A stretch of DNA of 64,000 nt from a virus (Duplodnaviria > Heunggongvirae > Uroviricota > Caudoviricetes), in IMG/VR virus record IMGVR_UViG_3300044259_000172, one strand, 5' to 3'. Below are positions 885-63,990 of this stretch, piece by piece. The first letter of the stretch is position 1. The number at the start of each line of letters is the position of its first letter. The position numbers and the translations under genes are program-made. The notes under the pieces were generated by a model. That model worked only from the letters and a program-made list of their open reading frames with translations, was not told the DNA's origin and did not search any database.

Positions 885-910
885 AAAAAGAGGGATTTTA
901 TCCCTCTTTT
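885..910 (-). terminator. rho-independent terminator (aagaggga-tttta-tccctctt) overlapping stop codon of 910..2226, followed by TTTTT on minus strand
   Basis: read directly. Confidence 0.6.
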
Positions 911-3658: not shown

Positions 3659-3679
3659 TTACTATTTATAAGATTTATT

Positions 3680-3997
3680 TTAAATACCCTTTGAATTTAT
3701 AAGGTATTCATATTTTCCAATAATAGAAACTAGTTGATTTCTATATTTGAAAATCCTATCATTCAAGACCCATCTTTCATAAATTTCTTGTTCATAATCT
3801 TTTCCTTTTCTATTCAAAAGAAATGAGTCTTTTAAGAAGAGAGGAAAGTCATACTTATTGACTCCGCATCCAGTGATCATCTTTTTTCTGGAATTGATTT
3901 CTTCTTCAATCATAAGTGAATTAAAAAAATTAAAAGATTCCTTAAGAAAGGACAGAGCTAATTCCCTATTTCCTTTAATGATTTCAATTTTTTCCAT
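3680..3997 (-). CDS. hypothetical protein (105 aa)
   Basis: ORF track; overlaps upstream gene by 14 bp, typical operon packing. Confidence 0.45.
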   Translation of the reverse strand: MEKIEIIKGNRELALSFLKESFNFFNSLMIEEEINSRKKMITGCGVNKYDFPLFLKDSFLLNRKGKDYEQEIYERWVLNDRIFKYRNQLVSIIGKYEYLINSKGI

Positions 3998-4346
3998 CTA
4001 ACTTATCCTCAAAATGATCAGAAATAGCTCCAGATAAACCTAGATAAGGATATTGGAAACATTTTACTTCAATTGTATTATTCTTTTCAGAAAATCCATC
4101 GAAAATTTCCTTAAGTTGAAGACATGTTTCAATTCCTTTATAGGAAAGGACATCTGAAGACTTTACACCATCAATATTATAATTGATAAGAGCAATTACT
4201 TCGGGATGATAATTTTCAATTCTTTTTAGCTTTTCTAAGTAAAGAAGATAATAAAGTCCATTCCACAGAATGGCTAAAGTGACAATAACTATGATAAATC
4301 GATAGAATTTTTTGTTGCCTTCATTCATTTTAATTTTTAATCCCAT
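3984..4346 (-). CDS. hypothetical membrane protein (N-terminal TM helix FYRFIIVIVTLAILWNGLYYLLY)
   Basis: ORF; hydrophobic segment. Confidence 0.45.
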   Translation of the reverse strand: MGLKIKMNEGNKKFYRFIIVIVTLAILWNGLYYLLYLEKLKRIENYHPEVIALINYNIDGVKSSDVLSYKGIETCLQLKEIFDGFSEKNNTIEVKCFQYPYLGLSGAISDHFEDKLDGKN

Positions 4347-4387
4347 TTTGGTATTGATTGAAGATATCTAGTTTAGATAGGAAATAA

Positions 4388-4496
4388 TAAGAAACAAGCT
4401 TTAGCTTGATCGTGAAACGATAATCTAAAACAATTTAGATTGTTTTGTTTCATCACTTTCAGTGATCCTCAAGCTAAAGCTTGCGGTTTCTTTTAA
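4388..4496. repeat. composite palindromic element in divergent intergenic region: outer inverted repeat AAGAAACAAGCTTTAGCTTG ... CAAGCTAAAGCTTGcggTTTCTT enclosing palindromes ATCGTGAAACGAT, ATCTAAAACAATTTAGAT and ATCACTTTCAGTGAT
   Basis: read directly; first ~35 bp recur at 63560. Confidence 0.6.
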
Positions 4497-4724
4497 TATA
4501 GATTTTAAGATTTCCTTTAAAATATTATACACCGGTCCTAGAATGTTGTACACAAAATAATGACAATTATTTCATAATTTCATTCAATTTGTCTCTCAAT
4601 GTATCAATAATATCTTTCGATTCACCTTTTATAATTGCATCAAGTTTTTCATATCGAACTCTTTGACTTTGCTAAAATTATTATACAAAATAAATCTCCT
4701 AAAGTAAACACTAATAAATAAAGA

Positions 4725-5168
4725 ATGAGTGGAAGACGGACATATCAAGGACAATATTATCCAATAAATGAATCGAAATATATTGGAGATCCTACAAAAA
4801 TAGTTTATAGATCATCATGGGAACTTCTCTTTTCAAAGTTTTTGGATTTTAATTCAAATGTAAAATTTTGGTCTTCAGAAGAAATTGTAATTCCTTATTA
4901 TTTTCCTTTAGACGGAAAAATGCATAGATATTTTCCAGATTATTGGGTAGAATTTCATAATGGGAAAAAGGTCATTATTGAGATAAAGCCTTATAATGAA
5001 ACTATAGAACCTGTCCTTAAAAAGGGAGGAAACAAAAGAGTTTTTGCGGATAGAATGGCAACATATTTAAAAAATAAAGCAAAATGGGAAGCTGCGAAAG
5101 AATTCTGTAAAGACCGAGGATGGGAATTTCATGTTTTTGATGAGCATTATTTAAAAAGATTGAAATAA
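4725..5168 (+). CDS. hypothetical protein with PD-(D/E)xK-like motif (FPDYW...VIIEIKP)
   Basis: plus-strand ORF after strand switch; D...E-x-K spacing consistent with restriction-endonuclease-like fold (weak). Confidence 0.45.
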   Translation: MSGRRTYQGQYYPINESKYIGDPTKIVYRSSWELLFSKFLDFNSNVKFWSSEEIVIPYYFPLDGKMHRYFPDYWVEFHNGKKVIIEIKPYNETIEPVLKKGGNKRVFADRMATYLKNKAKWEAAKEFCKDRGWEFHVFDEHYLKRLK

Positions 5169-8930: not shown

Positions 8931-9526
8931 TGACAGCTGGAATACAAATTATAAATAATTCCGGTCAATATCAAGTTATTCAAGATGGATTAAATTATTG
9001 TTTTAAATATAAAACTTCATTCATAGCAACTCCGACTACTACCTCTGGTAGCGATTTTAGAAATGCTAATGATGTAACAATAAGAATCTCTGGAAGCCAG
9101 AGATCAATTTTATCATATAAAACTAATGGAGTTTATATAGTAGGAAATTTTGATCCAACTTCTTATTCAGGAGGATCTATGAATTTAAATATTTCTTATA
9201 TAAATCTAACAGGAGGAAACCAAACTGTAGAAATTTTCATATTTGATAGAATTTTTGATAGAACAAATTTCGGAATGGAAATTTATGATTCTTCTGGAAA
9301 TGTGACAATGACTACCGCTTCTAGACCTTTAAGAATTGCAGGATATGCAAAACCGGGGTATTCGTTCATTGTAAATAATTTCGGAAGTTATCTTTATGAT
9401 ACTATGAACCCATTCTTTTTAAGAAATGGAGGTTCCGATGTTGAATTATCAAAACAATGGGTTTTTGATAATGTCCAGAGATTTGCTCCTACTCTTTATC
9501 TTTTTGTAGATAATGATGGAATATAA
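8930..9526 (+). CDS. tail-fiber-associated protein (198 aa), paralogous N-terminus
   Basis: start overlaps previous stop (ATGA); N-terminus MTAGIQIINNSGQYQ and internal MEIYDSSGNVTM repeat of same motif; bidirectional terminator follows. Confidence 0.5.
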   Translation: MTAGIQIINNSGQYQVIQDGLNYCFKYKTSFIATPTTTSGSDFRNANDVTIRISGSQRSILSYKTNGVYIVGNFDPTSYSGGSMNLNISYINLTGGNQTVEIFIFDRIFDRTNFGMEIYDSSGNVTMTTASRPLRIAGYAKPGYSFIVNNFGSYLYDTMNPFFLRNGGSDVELSKQWVFDNVQRFAPTLYLFVDNDGI

Positions 9527-9553
9527 AAAGGGAGGATTTTAATCCTCCCTTTT
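9527..9553. terminator. bidirectional rho-independent terminator hairpin (ggaggatt-tt-aatcctcc) flanked by T/A runs
   Basis: perfect 8-bp stem between convergent genes 8930..9526(+) and 9571..9831(-). Confidence 0.6.
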
Positions 9554-13881: not shown

Positions 13882-14032
13882 GGCGATAATCTTTCCTTTT
13901 ATAAGACCCTTTCCCCTTTTTAGGGGAAATGATTTTATTTTTGAAAATCTTCATATTAAGAGCTTTAGCATGAAGATTATGATTTTGTTTATGTTTTACT
14001 TTTAACACAATCTTCATTTGATGTACACCCTT

Positions 14033-16040: not shown

Positions 16041-16068
16041 TTCAAAATCCTCTTAATTGATAAAATAT

Positions 16069-16100
16069 TAGGGGTGATTCAATTTAAAGAATCACCCCTA
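16069..16100 (-). terminator. rho-independent terminator (12-bp stem taggggtgattc/gaatcaccccta)
   Basis: perfect inverted repeat directly after stop of RNA ligase gene, followed by T-rich run on minus strand. Confidence 0.6.
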
Positions 16101-16106
16101 AATGAG

Positions 16107-21250: not shown

Positions 21251-21767
21251 GTACTTTATTTTCCTTTTTTACAAGATTTGAAATGTATCCAGAAACTTCT
21301 GGAATTTGGTTATACATTTTTTGGATTACATCGAATGGAATAGGAGGACCCATTCCGGCTTTAAATCTTTCCTCTACCCTACGATTAAGTTCATCAATAG
21401 GAGTATTAAAGAAAGTTTTGACAAAAATATCCAAATTTTTATTTTGGAGAAATTTATCAATTTGAGATTTCAAAATCTTAAGATTAAGATTTGTATCAGA
21501 AATGACCAAAATATGGTCATAATCATTTTTAATGAAATCATCAATGGCTTCGTCACAAATTTTTGTGACGACTTTTTCTTTATCAAACTTATAAAATCCT
21601 GCATTATATTGATTGTTTGTCAAAAGATTTCGAACATCATCTCGGTTCACATTAATAAGAAGTGAACCTTTTGAGCAAAGTTTATTGACCCAGGTCGTCT
21701 TACCAGAAGCAGGAGGGCCAATAGTAAAAATAATGCTCTTTTTCATTTTCTTAACCTTTTTAATCAT
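21240..21767 (-). CDS. pnk: polynucleotide 5'-kinase, T4 Pnk kinase domain only (no phosphatase domain)
   Basis: SIIFTIGPPASGKTTW...INVNRDDVR...VISDTNLN aligns with T4 Pnk ILTIGCPGSGKSTW...NINRDDYR...VIISDTNLN; 175 aa only. Confidence 0.75.
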   Translation of the reverse strand: MIKKVKKMKKSIIFTIGPPASGKTTWVNKLCSKGSLLINVNRDDVRNLLTNNQYNAGFYKFDKEKVVTKICDEAIDDFIKNDYDHILVISDTNLNLKILKSQIDKFLQNKNLDIFVKTFFNTPIDELNRRVEERFKAGMGPPIPFDVIQKMYNQIPEVSGYISNLVKKENKVHEL

Positions 21768-25557: not shown

Positions 25558-25626
25558 TAGAATGATTTCCGTTTTAAATTAGTATTAAAATTCAATATGT
25601 TAAAAATGTAAATTTCATTAAAATGC

Positions 25627-25658
25627 AAAAGGTGGATAATTATACACTATCCACCTTA
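25627..25658 (-). terminator. rho-independent terminator-like hairpin (aaggtggata / tatccacctt) followed by TTTTGCATTTT on minus strand
   Basis: 10-bp perfect stem read directly. Confidence 0.5.
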
Positions 25659-25889
25659 ATTGCATTCTAAACGCATATTCCGGAAAAATTTAAAATCTCA
25701 TACAAAGTCACAAAGTCATAAAGTGACAAAGAACAAAGTCATTAATAATCTAAACCCGCTTTACAAAGTCACAAACAGGAAGTGAGTTTAAAACTCCTTC
25801 ATTTTGAACGGAACAAAGATTAATATTTTGCCAATGTTTTCCTAAAATGGAAAACGTGATATTTGATTTTAAATTAATTCCGGAACAAA
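25659..25889. repeat. iteron-like repeat region: at least 5 copies of ACAAAGTCA(C/T), several short palindromes (TTCCGGAA x2, ttttcc-taaaat-ggaaaa, gaagtgagttt/aaactccttc); no ORF
   Basis: read directly from 25690-25790; bracketed by two terminator hairpins. Confidence 0.5.
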
Positions 25890-25912
25890 GACCTTAAATA
25901 ATATTTAAGGTC
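25890..25912 (-). terminator. rho-independent terminator (11-bp perfect palindrome gaccttaaata-a-tatttaaggtc) overlapping stop codon of 25894..26559
   Basis: read directly. Confidence 0.6.
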
Positions 25913-30140: not shown

Positions 30141-30662
30141 TTAAAGGTATGAGAAATCTGATGTCAATTCTTTTGCATCGGGACCAAATGCAAACATTCC
30201 TGTTGTAACATCATAAGCCTTGAAAATCAAGGATCCATCCTTTAGATGGTATTCAGGATCAATGACTTCTTTTGCGATACAAGCCAATTGATCAGAAAGA
30301 GCTATCGCTTCTTTAATCTTTGCATAAGATGCCTTTTTGACATAAACTGTACCGAAACCTTGAGGAGTTTCTTTTTTCCACTTGAGATATTCGGAAGAAA
30401 GAAATTGATTAATCCCCGAAGAAATGAATTTTTCAAATGTTTCATGAAAAACAGAAGTTGCGTGTGAAGCCTGGGCAGCTGCCCTGCCTTTAGTCATAGA
30501 CAAAGGCAAATCGTCTCGAACAACAATGTATAGACGACTCAATTTTTCATCTGAAGATACCAACATTTCATTTAATTGAAACTTTTCAGATGATTTTTGG
30601 GGAGGAATTCCTCCCCAAAAACTTTTTTCGATAAATGTATTTGCTTTCATATTCATATTCAT
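30141..30662 (-). CDS. peptidyl-tRNA hydrolase PTH2-family protein
   Basis: YIVVRDDLPLSMTKGRAAAQASHATS matches the PTH2 core (vvRtDL.M.kGKiaAQcsHAa). Confidence 0.55.
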   Translation of the reverse strand: MNMNMKANTFIEKSFWGGIPPQKSSEKFQLNEMLVSSDEKLSRLYIVVRDDLPLSMTKGRAAAQASHATSVFHETFEKFISSGINQFLSSEYLKWKKETPQGFGTVYVKKASYAKIKEAIALSDQLACIAKEVIDPEYHLKDGSLIFKAYDVTTGMFAFGPDAKELTSDFSYL

Positions 30663-30880: not shown

Positions 30881-30904
30881 TGAATTTTAAGATATAGATT
30901 TTTA

Positions 30905-31165
30905 AAATGTCGGTGAGAGGAACACCTCCCTAACGCTGCCGACCCAACATCATTGTTTTATATCTAGTTGTATATCTTATCTAGCTGTATATGTCTTAAA
31001 ATTTCAAGAACTTAGAGCATGATAAAATCTCCTTTTGATAGAGTTTGTTCATGTATATTAAATTTTATTCGTCGTATATCATCTATGTAAAATAATTAGA
31101 AAAAGAAATTAGAGCATGATAAAATCTCCTTTTAATTTATTTAAGCTTTTACTCTCTATCAGAGC
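30905..31165 (-). ncRNA. candidate non-coding or leader RNA: from T4-early-like promoter (~31166-31200) to GC-rich terminator hairpin (30908-30946); contains two copies of a 25-nt SD+AUG-CUC-UAA minigene
   Basis: promoter-like GTTTACA-18-TATATT on minus strand; hairpin gucgg...ggagg-uguu-ccucuc-a-ccgac followed by UUUU; no ORF longer than 2 codons behind the SD. Confidence 0.3.
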
Positions 31166-31217
31166 TTGTTTACATTTTGAATATACGCTATTCAACACAA
31201 AATGTAAACAACAAAAT

Positions 31218-55247: not shown

Positions 55248-56150
55248 ATGATCAATAAAATTTTTGAAGTGGAACATAATCCACATTATATCAATCGTTA
55301 CTTGAAGTTTATTAATTCTATCAAAGAATTAGGTGAAAGAACACATTTAATTACAGAAAAACATCATATATTACCAAGTAAATTATGGCCAGAATTTAAA
55401 AATCTTAGACAAAATAAATGGAATATGGTTAAACTTACTTATAGAGAACATTTTATCGCTCATCTTATTTTATTTAAGTGTTTTTGTGGAAATAGAAAAA
55501 TTAAAATGCTTCAAGCTCTAAATTTTATGATGAAGCATTCCAAAAAATCAAGTGTTTATCAAATCAAAAGAACTGAGTGGTTTCTCAAATTCGGTAAAGG
55601 AGAAAATCATCCTAATTTTGGAAATACTCATTCTCCTGAAACTCGGAATAAAATATCTGAATTTAGAAAAAATTTTACAGGTTGGAAACATTCCAAGGAA
55701 ACAAAATCTAAAATATCAAATACTAAAACTGGTAAACTTCGCTCAGAAGAAACTAAAAAGAAAATATCGGAATCACATATAGGTAAAATACTTTCAAGTG
55801 AAACAAAAGAAAAAATATCGAAAACTACAACAGGGAAAATTGTTTCTGAAGAAACAAAAGCCAAAATGTCAGAATCTCGAAAAGGAGAAAAACATCCTCT
55901 TTTCGGAAAAACTCATTCTGATGAAACCAGAAAGAAAATGTCAGAATCCCATAAAGGAGAAACCTCGCCAATGCGCGGAAAAACTCATTCTGATGAAACC
56001 AGAAAGAAAATGTCAGAAGCCCATAAAGGAGAAAAACATCCAATGTTTGGAAAGCCTCGATCTGAGGAAACAAAGGCCAAAATATCAGAATCCAAAAAAG
56101 GAAAGCTTCGCGGGCCTTATAAAAAGAAAAATCCGCGAATCCTGATTTAA
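55248..56150 (+). CDS. free-standing HNH homing endonuclease with about 8 tandem NUMOD3 DNA-binding repeats
   Basis: N-terminal HNH_3-like EKHHILPSKLW...NMVKLTYREHFIAH; repeats GKTHSDETRKKMSESHKGE...; only plus-strand gene in the replication module. Confidence 0.75.
   Translation: MINKIFEVEHNPHYINRYLKFINSIKELGERTHLITEKHHILPSKLWPEFKNLRQNKWNMVKLTYREHFIAHLILFKCFCGNRKIKMLQALNFMMKHSKKSSVYQIKRTEWFLKFGKGENHPNFGNTHSPETRNKISEFRKNFTGWKHSKETKSKISNTKTGKLRSEETKKKISESHIGKILSSETKEKISKTTTGKIVSEETKAKMSESRKGEKHPLFGKTHSDETRKKMSESHKGETSPMRGKTHSDETRKKMSEAHKGEKHPMFGKPRSEETKAKISESKKGKLRGPYKKKNPRILI
55860..56050 (+). repeat. near-perfect ~60-bp tandem nucleotide repeat inside the endonuclease gene (NUMOD3 units)
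   Basis: ggaaaaactcattctgatgaaaccagaaagaaaatgtcagaa(t/g)cccataaaggagaaa occurs twice. Confidence 0.7.
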
Positions 56151-57592: not shown

Positions 57593-57654
57593 ACTAAATA
57601 TCCTTAAATTTTAACTCTATAGAGGCAAAAGGAACCTAAAAGGTTCCTTTATTT

Positions 57655-61752: not shown

Positions 61753-62208
61753 CTATTTTATGTTTGTAATAGGTGAAGATGATACTGAAACAGGAATTTC
61801 AAACGGGCCTATTTGCTCATCAGTCATTCTTCCGGCACATTCATATTTAAGGGCAATAAGGACTGAACTAGCCTTTGATTCTTCTTGATTGAAATTCCAA
61901 TCCCACTTTCCAAAATCTATTTTATAAATGAATGATTTTGGCTTGTTTTCTATTGAACTTTTTAAGGTAATAGGAACTTCATATACTACTTTATTCTTTA
62001 CAATATAACCTATTGCTGCTCCTTTTACAGGTTTACAAGATCTAATTTTATAACCTTCAATTTCAGCTGAAACTTTACTTTCCTCTATACTCCAATTAGA
62101 AGCTTGAGCAAATACAATCACAGGTAAAGAATATTGATATATTAGGAGTGAGATAATTCCTATAATCACCCCTAATAATAGTTGAATAATTTTTGTAATT
62201 TTTGTCAT
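61753..62208 (-). CDS. membrane protein with N-terminal signal-anchor (possible lysis accessory/spanin-like)
   Basis: MTKITKIIQLLLGVIIGIISLLIYQY; upstream of endolysin. Confidence 0.45.
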   Translation of the reverse strand: MTKITKIIQLLLGVIIGIISLLIYQYSLPVIVFAQASNWSIEESKVSAEIEGYKIRSCKPVKGAAIGYIVKNKVVYEVPITLKSSIENKPKSFIYKIDFGKWDWNFNQEESKASSVLIALKYECAGRMTDEQIGPFEIPVSVSSSPITNIK

Positions 62209-62492: not shown

Positions 62493-63341
62493 TTAAGATT
62501 GAAGATACTTAGATGAGACAAATCCTATTGAATCTCCAGTTTTAATTTGTGTCCATGTAGAATCTACATCTCTAATCTTTGAAACCTTTGTTCCTTTAGA
62601 TAGTGTTTTGATGATAGAACTATTAGTGGATGGGTCAAATCTTAAATTTAAATTTGCAGTTGTAGTCAATACATTTTCCTCATTAGAATAATCATTCTGA
62701 GAAGCTTTTGTTCCATTTACATTTGAATAGAAATCATCTGGAAGACAAGGACCTGGATCACATTTTCTTAATGGAGCAATCATATCATGTCCAACTACTT
62801 CTTTAATTGGATATGCTTCTTTGAGAGCTTTAACTATTCCATAGAGAGCTTCCATTTGGGCCTTTGAAAACTCTACCCAATATTTTTTTGGACCACCATT
62901 TTTATGAGCAACAAAATTAATCTTATCATCCCTATCATTCCATTTTACTGTAGAAGAACCTGGATATTTGTAATAAGAAATTCCATCTTTTTCATATGCA
63001 AAATCAACAAATCCAGGATTTGTGACTTCTATACCAATTGAATATGAGTTTAGACCTTCAATTCCATTCCAACTAGATTTTCCTGCATGCCAAAGAATTT
63101 CTGAAAAATCTGAAATTTGAACCACCTCACCTTCTTTAGAAACAACTAGTTGGCAAGATGATTGGACATTTTGATCAGAAGATAATGTTCTAATATCAGA
63201 TTCAAATGTAATTCCTGCCGTATAGTGGATCACAATATAAGAAATTGGAAATTTTCTTTTACCGGAGGTTTTTGTTGTATTAAAGTGTTTAACCTGGTTT
63301 CCATCCCTGAAAAGAAGATTATTTTTTACTGTAAATGCCAT
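62493..63341 (-). CDS. endolysin: N-acetylmuramoyl-L-alanine amidase (Amidase_2/PGRP) with C-terminal SH3b-like binding domain
   Basis: IVIHYTAG, LWHAGKSSWNG, NSYSIGIEV, VGHDMIAPLRKCDPGP amidase_2 motifs; C-terminal ~70 aa SH3-like. Confidence 0.8.
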   Translation of the reverse strand: MAFTVKNNLLFRDGNQVKHFNTTKTSGKRKFPISYIVIHYTAGITFESDIRTLSSDQNVQSSCQLVVSKEGEVVQISDFSEILWHAGKSSWNGIEGLNSYSIGIEVTNPGFVDFAYEKDGISYYKYPGSSTVKWNDRDDKINFVAHKNGGPKKYWVEFSKAQMEALYGIVKALKEAYPIKEVVGHDMIAPLRKCDPGPCLPDDFYSNVNGTKASQNDYSNEENVLTTTANLNLRFDPSTNSSIIKTLSKGTKVSKIRDVDSTWTQIKTGDSIGFVSSKYLQS

Positions 63342-63556
63342 TTTATTATTATTTACTCCTGTAGGACTTTGTAATATTATTTATCTTTTGTGGCGAGATA
63401 AAGTATATGATATTAACAATTGTTAATTTTACAAAAATAACATACTACTGGATTAAATTTCATAATTTATTAAATTTCGTGCATTATTTTGTGTACAACA
63501 TTCTAGGACCGGTGTATAATATTTTAAAGGAAATCTTAAAATCTATATTAAAAGAA

Positions 63557-63625
63557 ACAAGCTTTAGCTTGTATCGTGAAACGATTAATCTAGATTATAT
63601 CTAGATAATAAAACTAATCATCATT
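63557..63625. repeat. second copy of the three-palindrome element (CAAGCTTTAGCTTG, ATCGTGAAACGAT, AATCTAGAT-tat-ATCTAGAT)
   Basis: about 35 bp near-identical to 4388-4425. Confidence 0.6.
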
Positions 63626-63648
63626 TCATGATGATGCTAAAGCAATCT

Positions 63649-63990
63649 TTAAGATTTAATTTTAGCTAGACCTTTAAATTTAGGTAAAGGCTTTAATTCG
63701 GAAAATGTCTTCTTAGATTTATTAACAAAAATGTCATCCAAAGATATTTTTTGTGTACAAATATCTCTGAGTATGATATTTATAGCAATAGAGTCAATAA
63801 TATCACAGGATGTTCCTTCAATTTTACATCCTAACTTCTCATGAAGGTAATAACCATATTTTGAATGAAAACTATCAGCCATTAATTCCTTATTAGCTGT
63901 TCCTTTACCAGAAAATAACTTCTTGATGGAAGTAGGAGGTAATTGGATCATTTCCTTTTTGGATAAACTCCATATCATATATTTGATCAT
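63649..63990 (-). CDS. hypothetical protein (113 aa); weak resemblance to RuvC/A22-like resolvases
   Basis: ORF track; assignment speculative. Confidence 0.3.
   Translation of the reverse strand: MIKYMIWSLSKKEMIQLPPTSIKKLFSGKGTANKELMADSFHSKYGYYLHEKLGCKIEGTSCDIIDSIAINIILRDICTQKISLDDIFVNKSKKTFSELKPLPKFKGLAKIKS

Follow-up and report, generated by a model that had tools for sequence, protein, structure and literature searches.

In a 64,000-nucleotide stretch of phage DNA (IMG/VR record IMGVR_UViG_3300044259_000172; hereafter "the window", meaning the whole stretch at its full length) a module of ~200 bp occurs in two copies ~59 kb apart, one ahead of the gene for a gp4-like head completion protein (locus A) and the other ahead of the gene for an amidase, the endolysin (locus B). 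Each copy joins an "arm", which contains a match to a sigma-70-type promoter and its leader, to a "cassette" of short perfect hairpins. The reading that we tentatively prefer, with a probability of roughly 0.4, takes the module for a promoter/terminator boundary cassette resembling the promoter-early stem-loops (PeSLs) of T4-type phages, which would make a short structured early transcript and whose copies would be kept alike by gene conversion. The cassette would stop transcripts running towards the late gene, which at locus B would be those of an upstream gene for a RuvC-like protein that reads towards the amidase. The arm promoter would launch a highly structured early transcript of ~135 nt, serving at locus A as the 5' leader of two accessory open reading frames (ORFs), p120 and p105, and remaining non-coding at locus B. 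Recombination or gene conversion probably keeps the two copies alike.

Anatomy of the repeated module

The longest repeat of the whole window is an inverted pair of 95 nt (4486-4580 versus 63464-63558), the two arms, which abut the cassettes (Table 1). When the first hairpin is included, the inverted repeat measures 111 versus 108 nt at 92 % identity (103 of 112 alignment columns), and its core of 93 nt is identical at 90 of 93 positions (97 %; 4470-4563 versus 63481-63571). Read on the plus strand at locus B and on the minus strand at locus A, this near-identical block has CATTATTTTGTG at one end and the first hairpin, CAAGCTTTAGCTTG, at the other; the copies differ at 3 positions and by a CCG indel.

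A sequence-only reading of the same DNA had pointed to a near-exact second copy of a three-palindrome cassette, and this copy is indeed present. The string AAGAAAC-AAGCTTTAGCTTG-(t)-ATCGTGAAACGAT-(t)-AATCTA occurs at 63552-63593 and at 4389-4427; the two versions agree in 39 of 42 aligned columns, with two 1-nt indels between them. At locus B it thus starts 5 nt to the left of position 63557, where that reading had placed it. Exact sites for AAGCTTTAGCTTG number only three in 64 kb (4396, 4470 on the minus strand, and 63559), and ATCGTGAAACGAT is found exactly at 4409 and 63573 only. With up to 2 mismatches AAGCTTTAGCTTG gives 10 matches in the window against ~2 expected, a count reached in none of 100 shuffles. 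The third palindrome, said to keep its dyad design despite another sequence, is unlike between the loci yet forms a perfect dyad at each of them. The multi-palindrome module is well supported as conserved and recurring, and is not due to chance. What had been missed are the inverted arm repeat, the quasi-palindromy of each cassette, and further hairpins at 4452-4466 and 4470-4483 (locus A) and at 63617-63635 (locus B).

Each cluster forms a quasi-palindrome of ~100 nt with 4-5 perfect short hairpins, and self-complementarity amounts to 75 % in cassette A and 68 % in cassette B. At locus A the whole cluster, with three inner hairpins, can be closed by an outer stem of 20 bp in which AAGAAAC-CAAGCTTTAGCTTG (4389-4408) is paired to CAAGCTAAAGCTTG-cg-GTTTCTT (4470-4492). 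At locus B, TTTAAGATTT in the right half pairs with AAATCTTAAA of the leader, and the stop codon (63649-63651) of the RuvC-like ORF, which is convergent, falls within this half (63617..63660). Both cassettes fold far more stably than shuffled sequences (RNA z -5.4 to -8.1; DNA z -5.4 to -9.0). For locus A the RNA fold reaches -40 kcal/mol with z -6.1 on the promoter-sense strand (RNA z down to -8.1, DNA z -9.0), and for locus B -34 kcal/mol with z -5.4 on the promoter-sense strand (DNA z -5.4). Where the copies differ the hairpins stay perfect, as with ATCACT-TTC-AGTGAT (A) versus ATCATCAT-TTC-ATGATGAT (B) and with AATCTAAA..TTTAGATT (A) versus ATCTAGAT..ATCTAGAT (B). Searches of Rfam at the gathering threshold and at permissive E-values gave no family at either locus (best score at most 22 bits versus thresholds of 39-109), and no credible small conserved ORF lies inside the module.

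The arms are inverted, whereas the interiors of the cassettes match at 70 % in direct and at only 57 % in inverted orientation, so that the interior is flipped relative to the arm between locus A and locus B. Owing to the internal quasi-palindromy of the cassettes, a direct match appears beside the inverted arm: the left end of locus A resembles the left end of locus B on the same (plus) strand. Gene conversion or recombination between the copies would also explain the flip. In all three lineages examined, de Bruijn (Logan) assemblies end inside the repeat (L081/L089, L082, L084, L086, L114), and gene order and orientation around the modules vary among lineages; both observations make recombination at the repeats plausible. 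Inverted repeats of 93 nt lying 59 kb apart can mediate inversion, and genome isomers and assembly errors are therefore to be expected.

Misassembly was considered as the source of the duplication and rejected, since independent Logan contigs of run SRR35908198 carry a partial arm both beside gp4 and beside the amidase gene; the divergent arrangement of gp48 and gp4, which is the norm in relatives, also counts against it. Hairpins with GAA or TTC triloops were likewise considered as a genome-wide class. They occur at 7 and 8 sites of the window against ~2-3 expected, a modest excess affected by ascertainment bias and concentrated at the two loci only for stems of at least 6 bp, and this idea was dropped.

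A predicted early promoter in the arm

A promoter scan finds in the arm the sigma-70-type match TGTACA-17-TATAAT, which agrees with the consensus at 10 of 12 positions. The pattern T[GT][GT]AC[AT]-17-TA[TAG][AT][AT]T has 10 sites on the minus strand of the window, which carries nearly all of its genes, where 1.7 would be expected, and 200 shuffles never gave as many. An ORF start follows most of the other sites at a distance of 20-60 nt, and these sites are often preceded by TTTTGTTG, as in the arm. In silico, the arm promoter is a member of the phage's own predicted early promoter family. Between its -10 hexamer and the first hairpin lies a leader of 38 nt with 84 % A+T, identical in both copies (63521-63558 at locus B).

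At both loci the promoter points away from the neighbouring late gene. At locus A, p120 starts ~170 nt downstream along its direction; at locus B no ORF follows, and the promoter points at the 3' end of the RuvC-like ORF, which adjoins the module in convergent orientation. A weak match on the opposite strand, TTTAAA-17-TAGAAT, has hairpins upstream and is not conserved in lineage 2 (see below).

Terminator-like hairpins facing the late genes

A scan for terminators detects a stem-loop with a T-run on both strands at locus A, where 3 such sites compare with 0.1 expected, and on the minus, amidase-ward strand at locus B. The pairs are CAAGCTAAAGCTTG with TTTCTTATTA, CAAGCTAAAGCTTG with CGGTTTCTTT, and ACAAGCTAAAGCTTGT with TTCTTTTAAT, each having a stem of 5-6 bp with 3 G-C pairs. 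They have the sequence form of predicted intrinsic terminators, i.e. a G+C-containing stem-loop directly followed by a T/U-run. At each locus CAAGC-TAAA-GCTTG plus T-run faces the neighbouring late gene, and the hairpin just before CAAGCTAAAGCTTG always has a TTC triloop (ATCGT-TTC-ACGAT or ATCACT-TTC-AGTGAT). The degenerate right end of locus B retains ATCATCAT-TTC-ATGATGAT plus GCTAAAGC.

The same orientation holds in relatives: a TAAA-loop hairpin with T-run faces the late gene at four loci, namely window A (+), window B (-), L090 (+) and L109 (+). The stem reads CAAGC/GCTTG, GAAGC/GCTTC or TGATC/GATCA; both partners are exchanged in 3 of its 5 pairs, and pairing stays at 100 %, a covariation seen in three distinct sequences, i.e. 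a small sample that had been picked as hairpins.

Strong bidirectional terminator-like hairpins are found elsewhere in the window (886-910, 9526-9553, 13910-13929, 30594-30621 and 57628-57650). They consist of an A-run, a GGGAGG-type stem and a T-run, resemble the GGGG..CCCC stem-loops described for PeSLs, and appear to be the ordinary terminators of this phage.

Conservation in related phages

Closer relatives were located through the protein database, and several hold a comparable module at one or both of these positions. Lineage 2 is a 153-kb ENA contig (L083/L109) whose gp4 and amidase are 68 % and 54 % identical to those of the window. Within the 388 nt upstream of its gp4 gene, GTTTACA-17-TATAAT points away from gp4; behind it come an A+T-rich leader and four perfect hairpins whose triloops are GAA or TTC. 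A second copy lies upstream of the amidase gene, with 81 nt at 98.8 % and 24 nt at 100 % identity, and no ORF is found downstream of it (L109, the equivalent of locus B). Both copies have retained the -35 (GGTTTACAC) and the -10 (TATAAT / TAAAAT), while the 17-nt spacer differs completely.

Lineage 3 (ERZ23268497, L085/L113; gp4 69 %, amidase 52 %) has a two-copy repeat of 137 nt at 90.5 % identity, upstream of a gp48-gp53-tail-gp4 operon and upstream of the amidase gene. A fourth contig carries the lineage-3 module upstream of its amidase. In L110 (amidase 60 %), TGTACA-17-TACAAT faces hairpins and is directed away from the amidase, and in L090 (gp4 77 %) an early-type promoter is followed by ATGTTG-TTC-CAACAT and by GAAGC-TAAA-GCTTC plus T-run. 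The order X (RuvC-like), module, amidase, p88, gp55, gp47, gp46 is kept in four lineages, and the lineages that keep two copies at the same positions show 52-69 % protein identity to the window. The two intergenic regions can therefore not be called unrelated, as the sequence-only reading had it, since other lineages hold their own two-copy repeat upstream of gp4 (or its operon) and of the amidase. Of the two findings that would have spoken against that reading, a mere pair of copies and a lack of conservation in relatives, only the first is borne out: two copies were found within 64 kb of a 154-kb genome, and relatives share the arrangement. Module identity is 90-99 % within genomes, and between genomes the modules are barely alignable. 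Such near-identity within and divergence between genomes is the pattern of concerted evolution.

More distant relatives help to delimit locus A. In ~80 IMG/VR relatives (L001-L080; gp4 ~50 % identical), gp48 and gp4 are divergent and ~60 nt apart, with two TATAAATA late promoters. The corresponding interval of the window (3659-4724) measures 1,066 nt and holds p105, p120 and locus A, which thus represent an extra ~1 kb. In closer relatives the same spot is occupied by a SegE-like GIY-YIG gene (L090), an HNH gene (L094) or several small ORFs (L083). Judged from these gene contents, the gp48-gp4 interval is an insertion hot spot. The cargo beyond the outward promoter varies as well, being p120/p105 in the window and ORFs of 191, 69 and 208 aa in L083. 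Locus A accordingly adjoins ORFs that vary between lineages, and the position of locus B is conserved in four lineages.

The cultured Rhizobium phage P10VF (Pootjesviridae) has neither a large intergenic region nor a shared repeat ahead of its gp4 and amidase genes. When IMG/VR was scanned with the single sequences of gp55 and of the amidase, no loci were returned; a scan with gp47 showed gp55-gp47-gp46 to be conserved, with no amidase homologues upstream in those distant relatives. A separate feature of this region was seen in L093 (gp4 71 %): at 300-440, an iteron-like array of six or seven direct repeats, each ~14 nt long (TTAAAATGTTTAAAC and variants), adjoins the TTC-loop hairpins GTGATC-TTC-GATCAC and ATCGCC-TTTCA-GGCGAT, upstream of a small ORF diverging from gp4.

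Comparison with known systems

PeSLs of T4-type phages have their stem-loop immediately ahead of the promoter and close with a Shine-Dalgarno sequence and ATG; they are found as many tandem copies in hyperplastic regions, and GGGG..CCCC stems are frequent among them (Arbiol et al. 2010, PMC2839356; Comeau et al. 2014, PMC4122927). The module likewise combines a sigma-70-like early promoter (10/12 in silico) with one or more adjacent terminator-type stem-loops in a small composite cassette. As with PeSLs, the copies within one T4-like genome are highly identical, lie beside variable small ORFs and are proposed substrates for homologous recombination. The pattern of variable cargo ORFs described for PeSLs matches the differences between p105/p120/locus A and L083 (PMC2839356, PMC4122927). 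Unlike PeSLs, the module is present within the 64 kb in two copies only, inverted and 59 kb apart, and its positions upstream of gp4 and of the endolysin gene are conserved across lineages.

Several points weigh against the boundary-cassette reading. The 4-5 A+T-rich hairpins of the module lie downstream of the promoter, within the transcribed region, and there is no terminal Shine-Dalgarno sequence or ATG, the conserved part ending 122-144 nt before the amidase and gp4 starts. With no stem-loop upstream of the promoter and no such end to the unit, the module is PeSL-like without being a PeSL. Promoter and terminator are matches to consensus sequences only, and the CAAGC/GCTTG stem, with just 5 bp and 3 G-C pairs, is far weaker than AAAAGGGAGGAT-TTTA-ATCCTCCCTTTT at 9526-9553. 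On the plus strand at locus A nothing reads towards gp4, so that an insulating role explains locus B alone. In lineage 3 no promoter of the early family was found in the repeat, and in L090 the promoter is directed towards gp4 and not away from it. The best local alignments between the window and lineage-2 modules (CTAAAGCAATCTT(T)AAGATT(T)AAT; leader) reach p ~0.02 versus shuffles, which we take only as a hint of sequence homology; because this similarity is marginal, homology across lineages rests mainly on position and design. Finally, perfect dyads can persist without selection through palindrome-templated correction.

Other systems share single traits with the module. PR'-tR' of phage lambda (6S RNA) is a promoter with a terminator ~130-190 nt on, which yields a short RNA unless read-through occurs, and the nut/boxB elements are leader hairpins. 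The module, too, has a promoter followed by a terminator-like hairpin, and its small leader hairpins could be recognition elements. However, neither sequence nor loops resemble boxB (GAAAA pentaloop), no Q- or N-like antiterminator was identified, and at locus B no genes follow along the direction of transcription. In T4, hairpins occlude expression of gene e (lysozyme), soc and gene 49 from early read-through transcripts; there the ribosome-binding site is sequestered by a hairpin that also contains the late promoter. Here again hairpins lie upstream of a late promoter, and the problem would be the same, i.e. synthesis of an endolysin or of a nuclease-fold late protein from early read-through. 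In contrast to T4, the hairpins of the module are terminator-like, lie more than 200 nt upstream and are accompanied by an opposing promoter. A further arrangement was noticed in lineage 3 (L113 3958-3990), where the late promoter TATAAATA upstream of the amidase gene lies inside the loop of a perfect 6-bp stem, GTTCGT...ACGAAC; this recalls the T4 late promoters within hairpins that act on gene e early transcripts.

A purely structural analogy may be drawn with the inverted terminal repeats of parvoviruses, in which palindromes of the order A-B-B'-C-C'-A' form flip/flop isomers during rolling-hairpin replication. In the module, too, an outer stem encloses small palindromes, and the interior is flipped relative to the flanks in the two copies. 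It is, however, internal to a large double-stranded phage genome, not terminal, and there is no rolling-hairpin replication.

Alternative explanations

The modules could instead be a complementary pair of ~135-nt small RNAs (sRNAs) that time lysis, or a pair of cis-acting origin or break sites that form an R-loop or an extruded hairpin. Such an element would be previously undescribed, in an uncultured marine T4-like clade. We hold either form of the idea, and with it this novelty, to be doubtful.

As genes for an sRNA, the two copies would be paralogues whose ~135-nt transcript is itself functional and acts in trans, for example as a regulator of the early-to-late or lysis switch. The layout of a promoter, an identical 38-nt leader, very stably folding hairpins and a U-rich end is that of a bacterial sRNA. 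The missing ORF downstream of locus B and of its equivalent L109, and the promoter hexamers retained in both lineage-2 copies, agree with this, and the transcripts of locus A (-) and locus B (+) would be complementary over the 39-nt stretch picked out by the sequence-only reading. However, no Rfam family comes near its threshold (best 22 bits versus a gathering score of 50), and the complementary targets of the leader in the window are at most 12 nt long, which is the chance level in DNA with 70 % A+T. Loops of GAA and of UUC are found either way round with respect to the promoter, so that symmetry at the DNA level fits better than a selected RNA shape, and the locus A transcript would run on into ORFs. 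Functional sRNA genes are thus unlikely in our judgement.

A site acting at the level of DNA is another candidate that we regard with doubt. It could be an R-loop origin like oriF (uvsY) and oriG (gene 34) of T4, in which a promoter is combined with a downstream DNA-unwinding element that forms an R-loop, or a programmed palindromic fragile site or recombination hotspot cut by the SbcCD-like gp46/47 or by the RuvC-like resolvase. Transcription from the early promoter into the compound palindrome would produce an R-loop or an extruded hairpin, and this structure would be a replication origin or a recombination or break site processed by the Mre11/Rad50-like gp46/47 or by a RuvC-like resolvase. 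Such sites would head the gp4 late operon and the endolysin-replisome gene block, with gene conversion keeping them identical. As in T4, with its two promoter-plus-unwinding-element origins, a predicted promoter is followed by a very A+T-rich stretch (84 % in the leader, 70 % in the window) at two similar sites of a T4-like genome. T4 oriF and oriG use MotA-dependent middle promoters and are not known for hairpin clusters or near-identical repeats. The ~100-nt quasi-palindromes, with DNA-fold z of -9.0 and -5.4, speak for this idea. Relatives carry triloops of the C-GAA-G type (ACGAAGT) in hairpins of the equivalent intergenic regions, and C-GAA-G triloops form very stable DNA mini-hairpins. 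The phage encodes gp46/47, a RuvC-like gene adjoins locus B, and the differing gene order around the modules would also be in keeping with recombination sites. On the other hand, GC skew in the window simply follows gene orientation. Unlike the origins of other replicon types, the module has no iterons; no initiator gene was identified beside it. The orientation rule, i.e. the TAAA hairpin and T-run facing the late genes, is left unexplained by this idea.

The sequence-only reading had proposed two functions for the recurring module, and neither fared as well as the module itself. The first was a family of binding sites for a single DNA-binding protein, which as operators for a dimer would co-regulate both late genes. 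Several perfect dyads are packed beside the promoters at both loci, many stems start with AT(C/G) and end with (C/G)AT, and the same two genes are neighbours across lineages. But the half-sites of the palindromes differ, with spacings of 0 to 10 nt and no shared half-site at fixed spacing. The stems change by compensatory substitution while the loops (GAA/TTC, TAAA) stay fixed, which fits folded hairpins and not a shared double-stranded operator. No repressor-like gene was identified beside either locus, and operators of this kind are improbable. AATCT..AGATT and ATCTA..TAGAT dyads were also tried as a genome-wide operator family and rejected, their counts equalling those of shuffles (9 dyads of the AATCT..AGATT type in the window versus 8.6 expected).

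It is very improbable that the modules are functionless remnants of a segmental duplication or recombination, with palindromes kept perfect by palindrome-templated repair and not by selection. High identity within the genome could mean a recent duplication, and quasi-palindrome correction is well known in T4. Nevertheless, independent lineages at 52-69 % protein identity all retain two copies at the same two positions, and promoter hexamers are conserved where the spacer is not.

The other proposed function, a mobile mini-element of the type of a non-autonomous miniature inverted-repeat transposable element inserted at two sites, is close to refuted. In its favour, the repeated element is palindromic and short, cassette B is flanked by a 10-bp inverted repeat made up of AAATCTTAAA in the leader and TTTAAGATTT, and locus A lies within the ~1 kb missing from more distant relatives. 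But there are just two copies in 64 kb, no target-site duplication flanks the modules, no transposase gene was identified beside either locus, and the same two positions are occupied in three lineages by diverged modules. Exact copies of the cassette were absent from IMG/VR, JGI metagenome contigs and 185,579 bacterial and archaeal genomes, and an exact-pattern scan of viral contigs for the arm gave no match; the parent contig itself is evidently absent from these collections, and the searches lend no support to a dispersed element.

Genomic context and further features

The window has 30 % G+C and encodes a T4-type core: the baseplate tail-tube cap gp48, gp53, a tail protein and the head completion protein gp4 (PF08722), as well as the late sigma factor gp55, gp47/gp46 (SbcCD-like), a clamp loader, DNA polymerase and DNA ligase. 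One tRNA-Lys gene is the sole Rfam family above the gathering threshold across the window. Window proteins are only 30-55 % identical to those of cultured phages (Rhizobium/Sinorhizobium Pootjesviridae, cyanomyoviruses), and the DNA of the two loci has no match among 50,697 phage records. On this evidence the source is an uncultured T4-like myovirus. Identical gp4 and amidase proteins are also encoded on a 154,347-nt JGI contig and on Logan contigs of run SRR35908198.

The gp4 gene begins 144 nt downstream of arm A, and the amidase gene 122 nt downstream of arm B. A late-promoter-like ATAAATA sequence stands just ahead of the start codon of both genes; for the amidase it is GATAAATA, ~37 nt upstream of the ATG. 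p120 and p105 (together 3680..4346) lie between gp48 and locus A and have no family matches.

Table 1. Coordinates of the two modules and of neighbouring features in the window
Feature	Position	Strand	Remarks
Late promoter TATAAATA	3663-3670	-	in the gp48-gp4 interval
p105	3680-3997	-	small ORF
p120	3984-4346	-	small ORF, N-terminal hydrophobic segment
Module, locus A	4365-4580		cassette 4365-4492 and arm 4486-4580
Hairpin TATCTA-GTT-TAGATA	4365-4379	+	locus A
AAGAAAC	4389-4395	+	locus A
Hairpin CAAGC-TTTA-GCTTG	4395-4408	+	locus A
Hairpin ATCGT-GAA-ACGAT	4409-4421	+	locus A
Hairpin AATCTAAA-ACAA-TTTAGATT	4422-4441	+	locus A, third palindrome
Hairpin ATCACT-TTC-AGTGAT	4452-4466	+	locus A
Hairpin CAAGC-TAAA-GCTTG	4470-4483	+	locus A
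GTTTCTT	4486-4492	+	locus A
Arm A	4486..4580	-	same promoter match and leader as arm B, read on the minus strand
Predicted promoter, arm A	-35 4552->4547; -10 4529->4524	-	points left through the cassette towards p120 and p105
Late-promoter-like AATAAATA	4713-4720		before gp4; ATAAATA positions
gp4-like head completion / head closure gene	4725..5168	+	PHROG 218, E 6.5e-53; synteny in relatives
N-acetylmuramoyl-L-alanine amidase (endolysin) gene	62493..63341	-	Amidase_2 + SH3_3
Module, locus B	63464-63660		arm 63464-63558 and cassette 63552-63660
Arm B	63464..63558	+	inverted copy of 4486-4580; promoter match and leader
Predicted promoter, arm B	-35 TGTACA 63492-63497; -10 TATAAT 63515-63520	+	17-nt spacer; points right into the cassette
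AAGAAAC	63552-63558	+	locus B
Hairpin ACAAGC-TTTA-GCTTGT	63557-63572	+	locus B; core (C)AAGC-TTTA-GCTTG 63558-63571
Terminator-like hairpin + TTCTTTT	63572->63557	-	locus B; faces the amidase gene
Hairpin ATCGT-GAA-ACGAT	63573-63585	+	locus B
Hairpin ATCTAGAT-TAT-ATCTAGAT	63588-63606	+	locus B, third palindrome
Hairpin ATCATCAT-TTC-ATGATGAT	63617-63635	+	locus B, right half
GCTAAAGC remnant	63636-63643	+	locus B, right half
Dyad AATCTTTAAGATT, then TAATTTT	63644-63656 (dyad)	+	locus B, right half

Some further elements of the window deserve mention. A plus-strand ORF of 300 aa (55248-56150) lies within a long block of minus-strand genes, directly ahead of the DNA polymerase gene. Tandem repeats of 72 nt (55833-56102) encode its six NUMOD3 motifs (Pfam E 9e-56), and a free-standing homing endonuclease of the Seg/GIY-YIG-associated type is its probable product. 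A G+C-rich palindrome, ATATTAGGGGTGATTC...GAATCACCCCTAA, is present in two copies that are 78 % identical (16065-16101 and 62139-62175) and constitutes a second small family of repeated hairpins, unrelated in sequence to the module. The 336-nt intergenic region 25558-25893 contains four copies of GACTTTGT and one variant, GTCACTTT, within ~70 nt on the minus strand (25702-25771), again with an iteron-like look, followed by the hairpin GGTGGATAGTGTATAATTATCCACC, which encloses TATAAT. In another intergenic region of 337 nt (30881-31217) a 34-nt direct repeat (94 %), AAGAA(C/A)TTAGAGCATGATAAAATCTCCTTTT, occurs at 31006-31039 and 31103-31136; on the coding strand it reads AAAAGGAGATTTTATCATGCTCTAA, a duplicated Shine-Dalgarno sequence with a mini-ORF. 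Lastly, AGATTTCAAAATCTTAAGATTAAGATTT at 21465-21495, inside a coding region, holds the perfect dyad AATCTTAAGATT, which is also found in the lineage-2 module (L083 9794) and nearly so in locus B (AATCTTTAAGATT); in A+T-rich DNA this recurrence is probably due to chance.

Implications

Although uncultured marine T4-like phages are abundant, their regulatory DNA is almost unknown. Here, a compact and easily tested module of ~200 bp, made up of a predicted promoter, a leader, a hairpin cluster and a terminator-like hairpin, obeys a two-copy rule. Its placement ahead of the head-completion and endolysin genes is conserved in at least three lineages, with the copies homogenised within each genome. 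If the modules are origins, recombination sites or an sRNA pair, they would be a new functional element for the clade. If they are boundary or terminator cassettes, as we tentatively propose, the PeSL idea would be extended to another architecture and to conserved positions beyond hyperplastic regions, and the breaks of assemblies at these points would be explained as well.

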